DNA of 64,000 bases, taken from assembly GCF_016026235.1 (NCBI RefSeq), contig NZ_CP065613.1; one strand, written 5' to 3'. Positions 3,951-57,101 of the stretch are shown here, piece after piece. Below the pieces are notes generated by a model, which saw only the letters and a program-made list of their open reading frames with translations, searched no databases and was not told the origin of the DNA. Origin of the DNA: Escherichia coli (GTDB lineage: Bacteria; Pseudomonadota; Gammaproteobacteria; Enterobacterales; Enterobacteriaceae). A program made the position numbers and the translations under genes. Numbering within the stretch: position 1 is the first letter of the stretch; each line of letters opens with the position of its first letter.

Positions 3951-4505
3951 TTATTTTAAAGAAAGTAATTGTTCCACAGTCATATTTTTAATTGCGCCCC
4001 GGTTAACAAGAGTCCATCCCTGTTTTTCCAGATAAAACCGGAAAGTCTCCAGGGTACAGACCAGTGCGCCATCAGGAACGGTTTCGGTGAATTCGACATT
4101 GCCGAATTTGTCGAAGTGAACAACCAGAGTGCGACCATCACCCGGAATCATCTTGTCAGCAGGTGGGGTGTTATTCTGGCGCAGTTCGGCCTCCATGCGG
4201 TCGAACTCAGCAATGTAGGCTTCCTTGAATGCGGCGGCTTTTTTGCCAGTGAAGCCCATCATCAGGAAAACGAAGCCGTTTTTGGTGATTTGGTACATTG
4301 GGCGTTTTTCGCCTTTGGCGTCGGTATAGGTGACGGGCTTAAAATTAAGCCGGTTAAACTCCGGCGAGCATTCGAGAGTTTCGATCTTCTGAATAACGTT
4401 TTTGTGCATTTTCCGGAAGAACTTCGCAACCGCAACAGACGTAGTGACAGCGCGACCATTTTCGATGGTTACGTCAGGGTGAGAAAGGGTAAGGATAGTA
4501 GCCAT
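3951..4505 (-). CDS. rha: Rha-family phage regulatory protein (antirepressor-like)
   Basis: MATILTLSHPDVTIENGRAVTTSVAVAKFFRKMHKNVIQKIE...YQITKNGFVFLMMGFTGKKAAAFKEAYIAEFDRME matches the Phage_pRha pattern from memory. I place the start at ATG 4505 (SD GAGG at 4514-4517) rather than track start 4799, because the upstream 98 codons overlap a terminator and a structured RNA. Confidence 0.75.
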   Translation of the reverse strand: MATILTLSHPDVTIENGRAVTTSVAVAKFFRKMHKNVIQKIETLECSPEFNRLNFKPVTYTDAKGEKRPMYQITKNGFVFLMMGFTGKKAAAFKEAYIAEFDRMEAELRQNNTPPADKMIPGDGRTLVVHFDKFGNVEFTETVPDGALVCTLETFRFYLEKQGWTLVNRGAIKNMTVEQLLSLK

Positions 4506-4559
4506 GATGGCAGCCTCGATAGTCAGTTTAAATAACTCACCACCAGAGGTAGCAATCTC

Positions 4560-4640
4560 ATGGGTGGTGAGACGCACAGGGTTGCTACAACCGGTGACTA
4601 CCGAAACCGGCCAGCCTTGCGGCTGCCCTGCACGCCCCAC
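4560..4640 (-). ncRNA. candidate C4-type (P1/P7 c4-like) antisense RNA upstream of rha; ends approximate
   Basis: On the minus strand, GUAGCAA (4582-4588) and CUCACCACC (4563-4571) are complementary, in the same 5'-3' order, to UUGCUAC (4549-4555) and GGUGGUGAG (4536-4544). The targets lie just upstream of the rha SD/ATG. The region is GC-rich and hairpin-rich and is preceded by a terminator. No covariance model was run. Confidence 0.4.
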
Positions 4641-4670
4641 CATAATCTGAATGTGGCTGTGCTTGACGCA

Positions 4671-4694
4671 TAAAAAAACCGCCTGAGCGCGGTT
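4671..4694 (-). terminator. intrinsic terminator (minus strand)
   Basis: Minus strand reads AACCGC-GCTCAG-GCGGTT followed by TTTTTTA. Confidence 0.5.
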
Positions 4695-4821
4695 ATGCGC
4701 AGTAGTCATCGTCGGGGTAGCAATCCCGGCCCCCGTTTTATGAGGTGCAGGTGCACTATAATTCCACCCGTTCTGGTTTTCAATAGCTACATTCAACATT
4801 TTCTCTCACCTTTCATCACCG

Positions 4822-4976
4822 AAGTGAATTTTGTGATGCGGTGCCTGGTGCCTCCAGGTGACGTTAACCAGTTAACAATTACAGTCGGCTTTCCCACCCA
4901 AACCAATAAGGACTAACATGACTTTTAACTGTGCCGCGTGCGCTTAGCCGCATTCACCGCATCACAAAATTCACTT
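4822..4976. repeat. perfect 22-bp inverted repeat pair flanking a 111-bp spacer
   Basis: AAGTGAATTTTGTGATGCGGTG at 4822-4843 is the exact reverse complement of 4955-4976. The spacer contains smaller palindromes (CCTGGTGCCTCCAGG; GTTAACCAGTTAAC). Confidence 0.9.
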
Positions 4977-5206
4977 TAAAAAGGGCGGACATCAGCCAGC
5001 AATTAAACCGATGCCGCCAACTGGTACTTCACACAGCAATGTCGTTATTTACAACCGGAAGCGCACTCCCACCATTTAAATTTCACAGACAAGACCGACT
5101 CTTTATGGATACCGGAAATGCGCCTTCGTGTTGTGCCCGGTTTTATTTCACCACCTCCGGGCTTTGGTGGTATCTTTACTGAAGTTCTCACACAACCAGT
5201 AAGGAA

Positions 5207-5503
5207 ATGAATATGCCAACGTATCTCGCCAGAGTAGAACTATATAATGCTGAGCCAGAGGATTACGAAGGGCTTCATAAATATATGCTCTCACTAGGAT
5301 TCAGGAGAACGATCCCCCATGGAGATGGTTCGTATAATCAACTCCCGGACGGAACTTATGTTTCCGAAAAGGGCGGTGATATTTATCAAATTCGCAGCCA
5401 GATATCTGACTATGCAGACCGACTATCCGGGTATCGCGCGTCTGTTTTTGTTTGCGAATTCAGTCAATGCGCATGGTATTTATACCCCGCCAAGACCCGG
5501 TGA
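5207..5503 (+). CDS. hypothetical 96-98-aa protein, lone plus-strand gene in a minus-strand region
   Basis: ORF with SD AAGGA; start at ATG 5207 or 5213. It converges on and overlaps the 3' end of 5480-5692. No family recognised with confidence. Confidence 0.5.
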   Translation: MNMPTYLARVELYNAEPEDYEGLHKYMLSLGFRRTIPHGDGSYNQLPDGTYVSEKGGDIYQIRSQISDYADRLSGYRASVFVCEFSQCAWYLYPAKTR

Positions 5504-6042: not shown

Positions 6043-6450
6043 TTATTTGTTTGCGCTTCTTTTGCGAGCTTTGAGTAGTTCTTCAAAAAGTTTGTTGAAA
6101 TTTTCAACTCGAGCACGCATCTCTGACAACAGGGCCTTTTGCTCTGACTCAGGCAGTGCGTCGAACAGTTGAAGTAACTCTTTTTGATCTTCTGTCAGAA
6201 TGGCTGGCTGATTATCCGGGATCGGTTCGCCTGGTTGTTTATCTTCATCCCCAAAAAGAAGCCAAGTCGGTGAGCACTGAAGCGCTTGGCTCAGTGCGAA
6301 TAATCTTTTCCCCGCCGGCTGTGTTTCATCTCTTTCCCATTGAGAAATTGTTACGTGAGCCACTTTGACCAGCTTACCTAATGCGGCCTGAGACAGTTTT
6401 AATTTTTTACGCCTATGTAAGAGGCGAGCACCGAAGGTTTCGTTTTTCAT
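6043..6450 (-). CDS. dicA: DicA-like HTH (XRE) prophage repressor, no S24 peptidase domain
   Basis: 135 aa with HTH LSQAALGKLVKVAHVTISQWERDET. The C-terminus LFALSQALQCSPTWLLFGDEDKQP...MRARVENFNKLFEELLKARKR parallels E. coli DicA. Confidence 0.85.
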   Translation of the reverse strand: MKNETFGARLLHRRKKLKLSQAALGKLVKVAHVTISQWERDETQPAGKRLFALSQALQCSPTWLLFGDEDKQPGEPIPDNQPAILTEDQKELLQLFDALPESEQKALLSEMRARVENFNKLFEELLKARKRSANK

Positions 6451-8032: not shown

Positions 8033-8779
8033 ATGAAAAATATTGCGACAGGCGGCGTTCTGGAACGCATCCGCCGACTGACCCCGCCACATGTAACCGC
8101 CCCATTCAGAACGGTAGCGGAGTGGCGCGAGTGGCAACTTGCTGAAGGCCAGAAACGTAGCGAGGAGATCAACCGCCTGAATCGCCAGTTGCGGGTGGAA
8201 AAAATTCTGAATCGCTCAGGCATCCAGCCGTTGCACCGTAAATGCTCGTTTGCGAATTACCAGGTGCAGAACGACGGCCAGCGATACGCGTTAAGCCAGG
8301 CGAAATCCATCGCCGATGAACTGATGACCGGGTGTACAAATTTTGCGTTCAGCGGAAAACCTGGTACCGGGAAGAATCACTTAGCGGCAGCTATCGGGAA
8401 TCGCCTGCTGAAAGACGGTCAGACAGTGATTGTGGTTACCGTGGCTGATGTTATGAGCGCCCTGCACGCCAGCTATGACGACGGGCAGTCAGGCGAAAAA
8501 TTTTTGCGGGAGCTGTGCGAAGTGGATCTGCTGGTTCTTGATGAAATTGGCATTCAGCGCGAGACGAAAAACGAGCAGGTGGTGCTGCACCAGATTGTTG
8601 ATCGCCGGACAGCGTCGATGCGCAGCGTGGGGATGCTGACAAACCTGAACTATGAGGTGATGAAAACATTGCTCGGCGAGCGGGTGATGGATCGCATGGT
8701 CATGAACGGCGGGCGCTGGGTGAATTTTAACTGGGAGAGCTGGCGTCCGAATGTTAGCCATTCGAGGGTTGTTAAGTAG
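8033..8779 (+). CDS. DnaC/IstB-like AAA+ helicase loader
   Basis: Walker A GKPGTGKNHLAAAIG, Walker B LLVLDEIG; 248 aa. Confidence 0.85.
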   Translation: MKNIATGGVLERIRRLTPPHVTAPFRTVAEWREWQLAEGQKRSEEINRLNRQLRVEKILNRSGIQPLHRKCSFANYQVQNDGQRYALSQAKSIADELMTGCTNFAFSGKPGTGKNHLAAAIGNRLLKDGQTVIVVTVADVMSALHASYDDGQSGEKFLRELCEVDLLVLDEIGIQRETKNEQVVLHQIVDRRTASMRSVGMLTNLNYEVMKTLLGERVMDRMVMNGGRWVNFNWESWRPNVSHSRVVK

Positions 8780-10464: not shown

Positions 10465-10691
10465 TTTTATGGGGCACCTTTCTGATTGATTTCATATTGG
10501 CGAGGTAAGTAGAATGACTGCGGGTGCTTGAGGCTATCTGCTTCAGGCATGAACACCAAAAGGCAGATAGAGAAAAGCCCCAGTTAACATTACGCGTCCG
10601 GCAAGACGCTTAACATTAATCTGAGGCCAATTTCATGCTTTGCACATGTAGGTTAGCCTCTTACATGCCGAAAGGCAAGGAGAAGCAGGCT

Positions 10692-10847
10692 ATGAAGCAG
10701 CAAAAGGCGATGTTAATCGCCCTGATCGTCATCTGTTTAACCGTCATAGTGACGGCACTGGTAACGAGGAAAGACCTCTGTGAGGTACGAATCCGAACCG
10801 GCCAGACGGAGGTCGCTGTCTTCGTAGACTACGAATCCAGGAAGTAA
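10692..10847 (+). CDS. hok: Hok/Gef-family type I membrane toxin (in-frame upstream extension from 10635 corresponds to Mok)
   Basis: MKQQKAMLIALIVICLTVIVTALVTRKDLCEVRIRTGQTEVAVFVDYESRK (51 aa). The 70-aa track ORF mirrors MokC/HokC organisation. I did not map the Sok antisense RNA. Confidence 0.85.
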   Translation: MKQQKAMLIALIVICLTVIVTALVTRKDLCEVRIRTGQTEVAVFVDYESRK

Positions 10848-13052: not shown

Positions 13053-13129
13053 GGCCCTTTAGCTCAGTTGGTCAGAGCGAGCGACTCATAATCGCCAGGT
13101 CGCTGGTTCAAGTCCAGCAAGGGCCACCA
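13053..13129 (+). tRNA. ileZ: tRNA with CAU anticodon, ileX/ileZ-like (tRNA-Ile2, lysidine-dependent, AUA) rather than Met
   Basis: 77 nt. Acceptor GGCCCTT/AAGGGCC, anticodon loop CTCATAA, T-loop GGTTCAAGTCC, encoded CCA. The body resembles E. coli ileX from memory. Confidence 0.85.
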
Positions 13130-13130
13130 A

Positions 13131-13207
13131 CCACCACTAGCTCATCCGGATAGAGCATCAACCTTCTAAGTTGACGGTGCGAGGTTCGAGTCCTCGGTGG
13201 TGGGCCA
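13131..13207 (+). tRNA. argN: tRNA-Arg (UCU; AGA/AGG)
   Basis: 77 nt. Acceptor CCACCAC/GTGGTGG, D-arm GCTC/GAGC, anticodon stem TCAAC/GTTGA with loop CTTCTAA, T-arm CGAGG-TTCGAGT-CCTCG, then G-CCA. Confidence 0.9.
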
Positions 13208-13209
13208 GC

Positions 13210-13285
<76 letters not shown>

Positions 13286-13288
13286 TAT

Positions 13289-13363
<75 letters not shown>

Positions 13364-27276: not shown

Positions 27277-29209
27277 AGATTTCCTCGTCTCGCTTGGCTT
27301 CAGTGTGGATGATGCAGGAGCGAAAAAGTTCGGTTCTGTCCTCGCCGGTACAACTGCAAATGTCATCAAAATGGGGCTGGCTGTTGAAGGAGCTGCGCTG
27401 TCCGTGGTGGCCTTCACGGCTAAGATCGCCTCCGGTCTGGATAATCTTTACTGGGCGTCACAGCGCACCGGCGCGACAGTCCAGGGAATTCAGTCTATTG
27501 GCTATGCGGTTTCGCAGGTTGGCGGCAGCGTGGACGCTGCGCGATCTTCTCTGGAAAGCCTCTCCCGGTTTATTCGTAACAATCCCGGTGCAGAAGGCTT
27601 TCTGAATCGCCTGGGCGTACAGACCCGTGATGCCAGCGGTAACATGCGTGACATGGCCGCTATTTTTACTGGTGTAGGCCAGAAGCTCAGCGGTATGCCG
27701 TATTACCGGGCTAACCAGTATGCGCAGATGCTGGGCATTGACGAAAATACCCTTATGGCTATGCGTCGCGGAGTGGGGCAGTTCAGCGCTCAGTATTCAG
27801 AAATGGTGAAAGCGATCGGATTTAATGCCGATCAGGCTGCCTTATCGTCAAACCGGTTTATGACCTCGCTGAAATCGCTCGGTGAAATGGCCGGGATGGC
27901 GCGGGACAAAATCGGATCGAATCTTGCGGACGGACTGGCGGGGCAGATTGATAACCTGCGCAAAAAGATAATTGAAAATTTTCCCAAAATTGAAGTCACC
28001 ATCACAAAGGTCATAAAGGGGATCCTCTGGCTGGGTGAGATAGTCGGGCGGGGTGCATTCCGGATAGTCGATGGTGTCGGAGATATCATCGAGTGGTGGG
28101 GGAAACTGGATGCCGAAACGAAAACCCTGATAGAGGTTATCGGCGGTCTGGTTGTCGCCATGCGGATACTTAACTCTACTTTCTGGATGTCACCTATAGG
28201 GCTGATTACCGGTCTGATCGTGGCTCTCGGTCTCTTGTGGGAAGACTACAAAACATGGAAAGAAGGCGGTAACAGTCTTATCGACTGGGAAAAATGGCAA
28301 CCAGCAATAGATAAAGCGAAGGATGCGATCACCTGGCTTCGTGATCACCTTCTGGAACTAAAAGATGGTGTTGGCGGCTGGCAAAATGCACTGGAAATCC
28401 TCGGTACATTCATCGCGGGTGTCTGGGTATCCAAGGTTCTGGGGGCTTTCGGGAAAATATCAGGTTTGCTGGTCCCGCCGTGGTTAAAAGGCTGGATGGC
28501 TTATGCTGCGTATTTGTACTCTGATCGCGAAAATATTGGTGCCAGTGCGAAGTCATCCTGGGATTACACGAAACAAAATATTGGAGGTTCATTGCGCTGG
28601 CTTGGCATTGATACCGATTTTGGTCGTAATCCTCATACCGTAAAAGGCGCAAATATTCAGTCAGATATTCCAGGTGCTGAGCCGGAACAACATGCGCAGT
28701 CTACGAAGCGTACTTTAGCCGATCGGAATAACAATCCAGGGAATATTCGCCCGGTGAGCGGTAAAGGGTTCCGGTTTTTCGAATCAGCTCTTGAGGGCTG
28801 GGAGGCGATGAAAAACCAGCTCATGCGTTACTTTACTGGGAAAACAACCGGACGGGCATTACAGACTATTCAGGATATTGTCAGTACCTGGGCCCCGGCA
28901 GGTGATAACAACGATCCGAAAAAGTATGCACAGGATGTTGCGAAATGGATGGGAGTATCACCGAATGCAATATTGAATCTTACAGATCCCCGGACTATGG
29001 GAGCATTGATGCAGTCGATGGCGCGCAAAGAAGGTTATTCAAACTGGAACAGCCCGCTGGCGTATCAGGCCGCCGCTGGCAACCTTAACCAGCAGACTGT
29101 TATAAATGTTCATGGAGTTAACAACCCTCAGGAGGCGGCTAATCTGATCGCTGACAAGCAGGGGGCTGTAAATGCCAGGGCGGTACAGCAATTGAAAGGA
29201 CCTGCGTAA
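27257..29209 (+). CDS. tape measure protein
   Basis: 650 aa, helical with a TM-like central segment, in the expected position. The function of the C-terminal ~150 aa globular domain (NNNPGNIRP...) is unknown. Confidence 0.8.
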   Translation: MNAETIKDFLVSLGFSVDDAGAKKFGSVLAGTTANVIKMGLAVEGAALSVVAFTAKIASGLDNLYWASQRTGATVQGIQSIGYAVSQVGGSVDAARSSLESLSRFIRNNPGAEGFLNRLGVQTRDASGNMRDMAAIFTGVGQKLSGMPYYRANQYAQMLGIDENTLMAMRRGVGQFSAQYSEMVKAIGFNADQAALSSNRFMTSLKSLGEMAGMARDKIGSNLADGLAGQIDNLRKKIIENFPKIEVTITKVIKGILWLGEIVGRGAFRIVDGVGDIIEWWGKLDAETKTLIEVIGGLVVAMRILNSTFWMSPIGLITGLIVALGLLWEDYKTWKEGGNSLIDWEKWQPAIDKAKDAITWLRDHLLELKDGVGGWQNALEILGTFIAGVWVSKVLGAFGKISGLLVPPWLKGWMAYAAYLYSDRENIGASAKSSWDYTKQNIGGSLRWLGIDTDFGRNPHTVKGANIQSDIPGAEPEQHAQSTKRTLADRNNNPGNIRPVSGKGFRFFESALEGWEAMKNQLMRYFTGKTTGRALQTIQDIVSTWAPAGDNNDPKKYAQDVAKWMGVSPNAILNLTDPRTMGALMQSMARKEGYSNWNSPLAYQAAAGNLNQQTVINVHGVNNPQEAANLIADKQGAVNARAVQQLKGPA

Positions 29210-48660: not shown

Positions 48661-48864
48661 ATGTAGGTCGCATTCGGCACTTATTGTCGGATGCGATGCT
48701 TGCGCATCTTATCCGACCTACGAATCGCATCGAATCTGTAGGCCAGATAAGGCATTTACGCAGCATCCGGCACTTATTGTCGGATGCGATGCTGGCGCAT
48801 CTTATCCGACCTACAAATCGCATCGAACCGTAGGCCGGATAAGGTGTTTACGCCGCATCCGGCA
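48661..48864. repeat. REP/BIME cluster (at least four REP units in alternating orientation; ~94-bp tandem duplication)
   Basis: Units of the form TCGGATGCGATGCT.GCGCATCTTATCCGACCTAC and inverse GTAGGCC.GATAAGG...GCATCCGGCA. The 60-nt block at 48674-48733 recurs at 48768-48827 with 2 mismatches. Confidence 0.9.
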
Positions 48865-51647: not shown

Positions 51648-52271
51648 TTAAAATTCGAATTGTCTCGCCCGAAGGCTTTTCAGCATTGGTTTTGCCCGTT
51701 CGAAAAGGGCGCTTGCTTGGTCAAGTCGTGTCGCCTCCCTTAGCAGTACATCTCTGTTTTTCGTCACCGTGTAAAAAGTTTCAAACGCGATGTCATACAG
51801 CTTGCTCGTGTATGATGAGTTCAGTTCCTTCAATATCGGGTACAGACGTTTGCAGATGTCCTGCGCATTCTCCATCTGTACCTGCATATAGCAAAGGAGG
51901 ATGATTTCTTCGTCTGTGAATTGCTGCGCTGGTTGCATGCTGCGAAGTTTCTTTTCGCACTCGATGAAGTATCGGCGTATCTGGCGGCCTTTTTCGTTAC
52001 GCTCGACCATCGCCGTTTCTTTGGCTGTATCGAGGGTGAGGTGATAGTCTTTGCTACGGCGATCGCCTCCACGTCCTTTGATCCCCCTGTTTTGGTGAAC
52101 CAAAATGTAATCGACATCAACGGCAAAGCCGTATTCTGTTATGCGATTTTTAATCCATGTAGAGAAGTCACGACGTACTTCCAAAAATTCGTGTAAATCA
52201 CGGGCATTAACGAGAAGAGTTGTTTCGTTGGATATAGTGCCGTTGAATACGGGGATGAGTTGACTGGTCAT
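51648..52271 (-). CDS. AntA/AntB-type antirepressor-like protein
   Basis: 207 aa. The N-terminus IPVFNGTISNETTLLVNARDLHEFLEVRRDFSTWIKNRITEYGFAVDVDY resembles the AntA domain. Confidence 0.6.
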   Translation of the reverse strand: MTSQLIPVFNGTISNETTLLVNARDLHEFLEVRRDFSTWIKNRITEYGFAVDVDYILVHQNRGIKGRGGDRRSKDYHLTLDTAKETAMVERNEKGRQIRRYFIECEKKLRSMQPAQQFTDEEIILLCYMQVQMENAQDICKRLYPILKELNSSYTSKLYDIAFETFYTVTKNRDVLLREATRLDQASALFERAKPMLKSLRARQFEF

Positions 52272-52592
52272 TTTTATGTCCTTTGCATTTGTTCAGATAG
52301 CCCTGTGTTCAGCAGGGCGGTCAGGTACTTGAACACCGTGCAAAGTCGGCCCGTATCCTTAACCTTTCGGCTGTTTTTCGGTATACGCGCTACCCGACCA
52401 TATCTGAAAAATGGACATAAAAAATCCGCATGACTGACGGGTGCGGTTTCCGCTTTGCAAGGTGTGTTCAGCACCATGAAGCGGAATATAGCCCCGTTAA
52501 TGCGGTGTTGTCAAATCATGTAGGCCTTATCTTGCTGTAAGCCGCGCCATTCGGGCTTTTCCCCACATTTGGGGAAAACTATCTTGTCAAAA

Positions 52593-56863: not shown

Positions 56864-56996
56864 TTTTGGGAACTCCTGGCTGATTAAGTACGTCGATGAG
56901 TCGTTTCCATCCGTCACGTAATTTACGGGTGATTCGTTCAAGTAAAGATTCGGAAGGGCAGCCAGCAACAGGCCACCCTGCAATGGCATATTGCAT
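56856..56996 (-). CDS. cIII: CIII (FtsH inhibitor)
   Basis: Not in the track (46 aa). ATG 56996 follows [54 protein letters not shown] matches lambda CIII, with a shorter C-terminus. Confidence 0.85.
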   Translation of the reverse strand: MQYAIAGWPVAGCPSESLLERITRKLRDGWKRLIDVLNQPGVPKNG

Positions 56997-57101
56997 GGTG
57001 TGCTCCTTATTTACGCTTTAAATTGCTCCGTGTATTCACTCGTTGGAATGAATACACAGTGCAGTGTTTATTCTGTTGTTTATGCCAAAAATAAAGACCA
57101 A

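Follow-up and report, generated by a model that had tools for sequence, protein, structure and literature searches.

What stands in front of the rha gene at this locus, and is it protein or RNA? The locus lies on the minus strand of a 64,000-nucleotide stretch of Escherichia coli DNA (contig NZ_CP065613.1; the whole stretch is called the window below), where an annotated open reading frame (ORF) of 282 amino acids joins a Rha protein to 98 additional N-terminal codons. The original prediction had read those codons as a candidate antisense-RNA module of the C4 type, controlling an antirepressor-like gene that starts at ATG 4505. Our analysis supports this reading: positions 4506-4783 (minus strand) very probably form an RNA-only control module of the type known from P1 immI, P4, N15 and Gifsy-1 IsrK, placed directly before rha. 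All coordinates that had been listed for the complementary pairs A and B, the Shine-Dalgarno sequence (SD), the ATG, the third UUGCUAC copy and the terminator were confirmed on the minus strand. The elements of the locus are:

3951-4799, minus strand: annotated ORF of 282 amino acids; Pfam Rha domain at residues 119-203 only
3951-4505, minus strand: rha coding sequence proper, as judged here, 184 amino acids; ATG 4505-4503, with the SD GAGG (4517-4514) 8 nucleotides (nt) upstream
4755-4783, minus strand: sigma-70 promoter, TTGAAA-17-TATAGT, 10/12 consensus matches; inside the annotated 282-amino-acid ORF
4672-4748, minus strand: IsrK / c4-a1b1-type leader RNA (RF01394, 57.6 bits, E 1e-9, model positions 1-77 of 77)
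4672-4694, minus strand: intrinsic terminator of IsrK; stem 4694-4677, then a U7 run to 4672
4560-4647, minus strand: C4-type antisense RNA (RF01695, 75.7 bits, E 5.5e-13, model positions 1-87 of 87)
4641-4643, minus strand: conserved AUG at the C4 5' end, within the closing stem; ATGG invariant; in frame with rha, 46 codons upstream

Both RNA genes matched their Rfam models at full length and above the respective cut-offs (45 bits for C4, 50 bits for isrK), in agreement with the C4-type module proposed before the Rha gene, and the module shows all those defining features of the two families, C4 and IsrK/a1b1, that can be computed. C4 consists of a 17-base-pair closing stem, hairpin 1, hairpin 2 and a 3' tail with an invariant CC. 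When its fold was laid over 17 sequences, 99.3% of the cells were paired, compared with 32-46% in slid controls, and compensatory changes occurred at 15 of the 27 pairs. Two features bear on processing by RNase P here, an acceptor-like stem and the invariant CC at the 3' end; for P1, the precursor of C4 has been reported as a substrate of RNase P (PMC11143913).

IsrK, in turn, is made up of hairpin 1, hairpin 2 (whose loop is site a1), a single-stranded spacer with a second C4 target, and the intrinsic terminator. We equate it with the a1/b1 leader because the Rfam 15 family RF03163 ('a1, b1 targets of C4', in the C4 clan) overlaps the first two IsrK hairpins in relatives. The promoter at 4783-4755 was the sole promoter-like site within 4400-5300, and the transcription start predicted from it (about 4748) coincides with position 1 of the isrK model. 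A -35/17/-10 promoter lay at a constant distance from the IsrK +1 position in 15/15 divergent loci, with promoter sequences that were unrelated to one another. The two RNA genes also travel together: isrK stood directly upstream of C4 in every relative examined, including P4, N15 and the P1-like RCS47, and the tandem preceded an antirepressor-type gene in 15/15 divergent loci. It is also present in P4 and N15; the gene set behind it in P4 is the replication operon. As a peculiarity of the window, position 4731 in IsrK hairpin 1 is a G, where nearly all close relatives have a U (GGGGGC versus GGGUGC), so that an A-G mismatch stands in place of an A-U pair. Folded by itself, the IsrK of the window is unremarkable (z -0.83).

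The relatives came from 80 IMG/VR loci and from 12 annotated phage loci with 69-75% identity (1720a-02, mEp460, ST64B, cdtI, two Stx phages, two Klebsiella phages, a P2-like phage, PhiR12_1, the P1-like RCS47 and a Vibrio phage), to which loci of Arsenophonus, P4 and N15 were added. A scan of contigs with the Rha protein gave 7 loci and little extra diversity, the annotated phage collection being far richer. Site co-variation, leader folds and frame counts were evaluated on 20 divergent loci, with P1-like, P4, N15, ST64B, Stx, Klebsiella and Vibrio phages among them; these loci are related to one another and are not independent. We scored the pairing of sites as the length of the contiguous run minus 0.5 for each G-U pair, and compared cognate with non-cognate combinations of loci. 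This site-wise measure was adopted instead of whole-segment RNAduplex energies, which ranked the cognate IsrK first in 17/20 loci but held no cognate versus non-cognate information for the downstream leader, because the GC-rich stems and the invariant b pair dominate there. The sites in the window are, from 5' to 3' on the transcript:

4717-4723, minus strand: site a1, UUGCUAC, in the loop of IsrK hairpin 2; complementary to the C4 junction
4700-4708, minus strand: IsrK spacer copy of the loop target, UGACUACUG; 9 pairs, one of them G-U, with the C4 hairpin-2 loop
4595-4607, minus strand: C4 hairpin-2 loop site, GUUUCGGUAGUCA; antisense element reaching the rha SD
4582-4588, minus strand: C4 junction site a', GUAGCAA, between hairpin 2 and the closing stem
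4563-4571, minus strand: site b', CUCACCACC; 3' strand of the C4 closing stem plus tail
4549-4555, minus strand: site a2, UUGCUAC, in the rha leader; complementary to the C4 junction
4536-4544, minus strand: site b2, GGUGGUGAG, in the rha leader; 9-nt match to b'
4513-4525, minus strand: mRNA target of the C4 loop, UGACUAUCGAGGC; contains the SD GAGG (4517-4514)

These sites change together across phages. The IsrK hairpin-2 loop, the C4 junction and the site after C4 varied in concert across the 20 loci and define at least 11 specificity classes: UUGCUAC (that of the window), CGUGGAAA, UUAGCAC, UUUGCAC, UUGGCCU, UUGGCGU, UUCGCAG, UUGAGAC, UUGGAAC, UUAGUAC and GUGAGAA. Site a1 matched its own C4 junction perfectly over 7 nt in 18/20 loci and over 6 nt in the other two (mean score 7.05 for cognate and 4.8 for non-cognate combinations), and site a2 did so over 7 nt in 20/20 loci, with 10 nt in one of them (7.15 versus 5.1). 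A further pairing, the most SD-proximal of all, had been missed in the original prediction, which had described only the A and B pairs, both of which stand. In the window, the C4 hairpin-2 loop (4595-4607) pairs with 4525-4513 over 13 contiguous positions, three of them G-U; this loop co-varied with its SD-covering target in 20/20 loci (9.6 versus 5.7), and the target overlapped the SD in all of them. Its copy in the IsrK spacer gave mean scores of 8.6 and 5.5, respectively.

The expectation of compensatory changes between both site pairs was thus borne out for the A pair, whereas the b pair (CUCACCACC/GGUGGUGAG) turned out to be nearly invariant (8.35 for cognate versus 7.5 for non-cognate combinations), with compensatory changes in P4, in the P1-like RCS47 and in one further locus (L096). 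The site comparison across loci revealed no partner copy of the b pair in IsrK. We also assessed the complementarities within the window sequence alone, using 2000 dinucleotide shuffles. Added together, the three longest antisense runs of Watson-Crick pairs that C4 can form with the 57-nt leader make up 23 nt, a value reached by 0/2000 shuffles, while the longest run taken singly (9 nt) was reached by 20/2000. The upstream UUGCUAC copy in IsrK, to which the original prediction had pointed, was not significant by this test (718/2000); we accept it as real because of its co-variation across loci, as the loop of IsrK hairpin 2. By position, the a1-a' pairing would correspond to the G28/G31-C162/C159 helix of Gifsy-1. 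Two other candidates were rejected. A 7-nt match between GGCAGCC in C4 hairpin 1 and GGCUGCC in the leader was dismissed as coincidence because relatives differ in hairpin 1 but share an unchanged GGCUGCC, and a terminator-like hairpin formed by a2 and b2 (4555-4537) was not conserved in other classes.

The leader between C4 and rha has a predicted structure of its own, which the original prediction had likewise missed:

4506-4557, minus strand: predicted leader hairpin; CCUC (4549-4546) pairs with the SD GAGG (4517-4514), and b2 (4544-4539) pairs with ACUAUC (4523-4518)

Site b2 therefore doubles as part of a predicted SD-sequestering hairpin. Folded alone, the leader (4559-4503) had a minimum free energy (MFE) of -22.2 kcal/mol (z -4.66), and the predicted probability that the SD is paired was 1.0 in the window. 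Across the 20 loci the mean of this probability was 0.88, compared with 0.62 when the upstream part was shuffled, and it was above the control in 20/20; in the MFE folds, at least two SD bases were paired to a pyrimidine-rich stretch in 20/20 leaders. RNAalifold did not recover this anti-SD hairpin on the leader alignment, because the variable-length sites broke the register of the MAFFT alignment, and single-sequence folds and pairing probabilities were used instead. What RNAalifold found was solely a 4-base-pair GCCA/UGGC helix that encloses the rha start codon (window 4501-4511, minus strand). In four loci, one pair of this helix is changed from C-G to U-A.

How would such a module control rha? 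Transcription from the promoter at 4783-4755 would start the IsrK-type leader (4748-4672), which would be ended by the intrinsic terminator, and production of C4 and of rha mRNA would need read-through of that terminator (4694-4672). Read-through transcripts would be processed, by RNase P as in P1, releasing C4, which would pair with the leader of rha (4555-4549 and 4525-4513), either in trans or in cis, and keep ribosomes from binding. C4 may promote premature termination as well, in the manner of P4 and N15. The Rha regulator would thereby be kept off in the lysogen. The terminated IsrK, bearing the same targets, would compete for C4 and may open the C4 fold, as in Gifsy-1, allowing translation from AUG 4643 in frame into rha. 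The IsrK:C4 balance from one promoter would then set Rha expression, and the site sequence would decide which related prophages cross-regulate.

Among the closest known systems is that of P1 and P7. Their immI region resembles the window locus in that it has the same Rfam C4 family and an isrK/a1b1-type leader (checked on the P1-like RCS47), carries antisense RNA and targets on one transcript, has a target abutting the SD of the first downstream gene, and owes its specificity to a few nucleotides. The SD-AUG-GCUAC context is nearly identical in RCS47 and the window. There are also differences: P1 has icd followed by ant1/2, whereas the window has a single Rha-domain protein of 184 amino acids; P1 is a C1-controlled plasmid prophage, whereas the window holds an integrated Rac/Qin-like lambdoid prophage with a DicA-type repressor; and the C4 AUG frame of RCS47 is closed 18 nt before the gene start, whereas that of the window is open and in frame. 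The a and b labels used for the window may differ from those of sites a and b in P1. P1/P7 heteroimmunity maps to few nucleotides in immI (PMC6906374), and in P1, C4 is needed for full repression of ant, alongside repression of operon transcription by C1 (PMC8198154).

Several observations weigh against this scheme. Even with no C4 present, the predicted leader fold sequesters the SD. The AUG 4643 frame, open in 13/20 loci, hints at ribosome transit, which a pure block of the SD by C4 does not explain. The isrK promoter shares no k-mer of 9 nt or longer with the intergenic region between the repressor and cro, and inspection by eye revealed no LexA box at this promoter. Finally, the direction of control has been established in relatives and it differs among them, being a translation block in P1, termination in P4 and N15, and activation by IsrK in Gifsy-1. 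One sequence that we considered as a LexA box, CTGTAATTGTTAACTG, was rejected, as it lacks a CAG half-site and is not conserved in relatives.

The alternative that survives best is that the module acts mainly by antisense-dependent premature termination, with C4 binding the IsrK and leader sites on the nascent RNA, rather than by a block of translation; we regard this as possible, though not as the probable mode. P4 (PLE-seqA-CI RNA/seqB-seqC) and the N15 anti-immunity locus, for which the described mechanism is antisense-dependent transcription termination, share the isrK-terminator-C4 layout of the window identically by Rfam, with the same order and spacing, two-site complementarity upstream and downstream of C4, and a terminator in the leader; the SD-AUG context of P4 is identical to that of the window. 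In the window, terminator 4694-4672 likewise lies between the upstream target sites and C4. P4 CI has been described as an RNA processed from an untranslated transcript that terminates transcription through seqA and seqC (PMC4825925). P4, however, controls replication genes instead of an antirepressor; at the N15 locus the small processed RNA lies before antirepressor genes. Termination pure and simple would also have no need for a loop target that overlaps the SD in all loci. In P1, the type member of the family, C4 moreover prevents icd and ant, which lie downstream of it, from being expressed. It does so by repressing icd translation. The two modes are not mutually exclusive.

A second alternative takes Gifsy-1 as its model and holds that the C4 fold chiefly hides a translated leader ORF starting at AUG 4643, that IsrK is a trans activator, and that C4 is not a diffusible repressor. 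In the isrK-orf45 (STnc1160)-anrP locus of the Salmonella prophage Gifsy-1, IsrK activates translation of orf45/anrP in trans and AnrP induces the prophage (PMC4825925); the helix between the IsrK loop and the C4 junction has been proven by compensatory mutations, and orf45 is translated and needed for anrP translation through coupling (PMC4825925). The likeness to the window extends to an IsrK with its own promoter, the terminator (leaky in Gifsy-1), the C4-like RNA downstream, the antirepressor-like gene, the a1-a' helix, and the AUG at the C4 5' end, which is the start of orf45 in Gifsy-1. The AUG is invariant, its distance from the gene start is a multiple of three (132, 135, 138 or 141) in 18/20 loci, including loci with in-frame stops, and an elongating ribosome would melt the predicted hairpin in which the rha SD lies. 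The stop codon of orf45 and the start codon of anrP overlap in Gifsy-1 (AUGA), whereas in the window the AUG 4643 frame runs stop-free into rha for 230 codons, so that the leader frame is fused to rha and no separate orf45-type stop overlaps the gene start.

We consider this second alternative unlikely for the window, for all the genetics and biochemistry behind it in Gifsy-1. In 7/20 loci, the leader ORF is closed inside C4 or a long way from the start of the gene, and the sites co-vary just as strictly there; the co-variation of C4 with a2 and with the SD-adjacent targets is left unexplained unless C4 pairs there. The published Gifsy-1 model gives STnc1160 no role as a C4-type trans repressor and leaves downstream a2/SD targets out of account. 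Both IsrK and STnc1160 are abundant in lysogens (PMC7067206), and STnc1160/C4 accumulates as a separate stable RNA. Selection for ribosome transit through the C4 gene may account for the open frame and its preserved phase, but other frames are nearly stop-free too in some loci, and the loci are related.

The third alternative is that the 282-amino-acid ORF is real, with an N-terminal 'Ash' domain fused to Rha and incidental RNA matches. The Pfam family PF10554 (Phage_ASH; gathering score 26 bits) matches the ORF at residues 14-108 (E 4e-21, 75.8 bits), RefSeq carries the long form as WP_000935589.1 (282 amino acids), and 'Rha/antirepressor' coding sequences of 287-385 amino acids in mEp460, ST64B, cdtI and other phages take in the module stretch. 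The frame is stop-free across the module in 45/49 close relatives and 13/20 divergent loci. Other frames are nearly stop-free as well in the GC-rich module (0/3/0 stops in the three frames of L093), and in the remaining 7/20 loci, the P1-like RCS47 included, the frame contains 1-7 stops. Divergence per codon position, measured in the 12 loci with an open frame, was flat in the module (0.324/0.331/0.333), whereas the first 330 nt of rha had a clear coding signature (0.291/0.237/0.501). Codons 1-98 thus lack a coding signature and any third-position excess in these loci, in line with the original prediction, which had set a protein-like substitution pattern across 4505-4799 against its own reading. 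The promoter and start site of the module lie downstream of ATG 4799, and in phages with the upstream frame closed, depositors placed the gene start at the ATG equivalent to 4505. Both this ATG and the rha SD are conserved in all loci compared.

The Pfam match itself has another explanation. In seven other phages it coincides exactly with the translation of isrK, C4 and the leader, and the P4 'cI gene product', an obsolete ORF that is both namesake and member of PF10554, overlaps the Rfam C4 match that is the P4 CI RNA. The coincidence with the module can be seen at 4505-4799 (minus strand) of the window, at 8168-8584 of the P4 locus and at 28082-28372 of the N15 locus; gene 32 of N15 overlaps the C4 match there. 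All of the conservation is explained by RNA pairing, and we hold a fused Ash-Rha protein to be very improbable. As far as sequence can tell, codons 1-98 are not a protein domain, because of the flat divergence, the internal promoter, the stops in 7/20 loci and the RNA gene that is the P4 namesake; the 282-amino-acid ORF is an over-extended version of the 184-amino-acid Rha with its true start at ATG 4505, as had been predicted. The PF10554 family as such appears to be the conceptual translation of isrK and C4 RNA genes.

That the complementarities are mere chance in GC-rich sequence is hardly credible, for although a single 7-nt match is common and the IsrK copy is easily equalled by shuffling, no shuffle reached the combined leader matches, both Rfam E-values are very low, and the strict three-way co-variation across at least 11 classes refutes it.

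The prophage that carries the module is of the E. coli Rac/Qin-like kind. Read along the minus strand, its elements follow one another as a DicA-like helix-turn-helix repressor (6043-6450), DUF1391, sub-threshold DicF-like and STnc100-like matches, the module, rha, ydaE and recE. The gene downstream of the module has a Phage_pRha domain, and the genes of relatives are labelled Rha or antirepressor. A domain search of the DicA-like repressor protein found no S24 domain, in agreement with the earlier statement that the repressor lacks an autocleavage domain. RNA-gated Rha is a reasonable candidate induction route because the prophage repressor has no self-cleavage domain, and bipartite immunity, with the DicA-like repressor on one side and an RNA-controlled putative antirepressor as the induction switch on the other, is plausible by analogy with known systems. 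Upstream of the module, the DicF-like match lies at 4983-5033 (minus strand; 28.6 bits, cut-off 48), with a terminator-like hairpin at 5015-4988, and the STnc100-like match at 4830-4971 (minus strand; 34.1 bits, cut-off 47); this setting recalls the Qin dicB operon, with rha occupying the place of dicB.

With a 1351-nt query made of rha plus the module, similar DNA was found in 4641 of the 5426 complete E. coli genomes searched; the median copy number was 2 and the highest 9. On single viral contigs, two module copies can stand about 1.5 kb apart, as in L032 (1173-1526 and 2705-3042) and also in L022. The copies in L032 differ in specificity class (UUGCUAC and CGUGGAAA), and heteroimmune modules therefore coexist in one element.

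The other prophage of the window carries a second module with a similar logic and a different RNA. Its elements are:

52255-52520, minus strand: second immI-like module; TTGACA-17-TATATT promoter, short terminated leader, sRNA-Xcc1, antirepressor gene
52311-52399, minus strand: sRNA-Xcc1 (Rfam, 68.3 bits); carries CUUUGCA and GUGUUCA
51648-52271, minus strand: AntA/P22_AR_C antirepressor gene, downstream of sRNA-Xcc1

The leader holds targets of sRNA-Xcc1 at 52470 (UGAACAC) and 52459 (UGCAAAG), and the target repeats recur downstream at 52311 and 52287, with the UGCAAAG copy at 52287 abutting the SD. The three copies co-vary in four specificity classes (L102-L105: Stx phages, 2851/P13374, Aaphi23), each before an Ant/Rha gene. 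By its site arrangement, sRNA-Xcc1 looks like a second RNA family and a C4 analogue, with the same logic of a1b1, antisense RNA and a2b2 at the SD. We found no paper that calls it a C4 analogue; one report merely records sRNA-Xcc1 beside an ORF6N gene (PMC7313666). In the Arsenophonus locus (1059-1420), sRNA-Xcc1 lies about 90 nt upstream of an isrK and C4 pair; its upstream target is present there, it has no downstream target, and it may be a remnant. The further Rfam matches above cut-off in the window were a sok antitoxin RNA (10522-10697, plus strand, 117 bits), four clustered tRNAs (13053-13360, plus strand), naRNA4 (48741-48811, plus strand, 60.4 bits, cut-off 59.5) and the lambda cIII thermoregulator (56951-57009, minus strand, 88.5 bits).

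C4 and isrK beside antirepressor-like genes, with a'/b' matching the upstream region, had already been noted in APSE phages (PMC7313666), and the window locus is another case of a known module type. What our analysis adds is the correction of the annotation, the Pfam artefact, the third site, the anti-SD hairpin and the catalogue of classes. More tentatively, and with doubt outweighing confidence, we suggest that the C4 gene of the Rha/P4 clade might double as a translated leader, its frame open and in register with the antirepressor gene yet free of constraint on the amino acids, and selected for ribosome transit and not for its peptide, and that sRNA-Xcc1 may be a so far unrecognised analogous family. 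If this were true, one promoter would give rise to a repressor RNA (C4), a competitor or activator (IsrK) and a structure-gated leader ORF, which together would make a self-contained switch, and the site sequences of this switch would define many heteroimmune classes.

For the annotation of this family, the N-termini of the 282-405-amino-acid 'Rha/antirepressor' proteins in RefSeq and in many phage records would really be a promoter and two RNA genes. The site classes, at least 11 in number, predict which co-resident prophages, Stx phages included, would share or escape mutual antirepressor control. For the prophage itself, RNA-gated Rha is, by analogy with Gifsy-1, a candidate route to induction.

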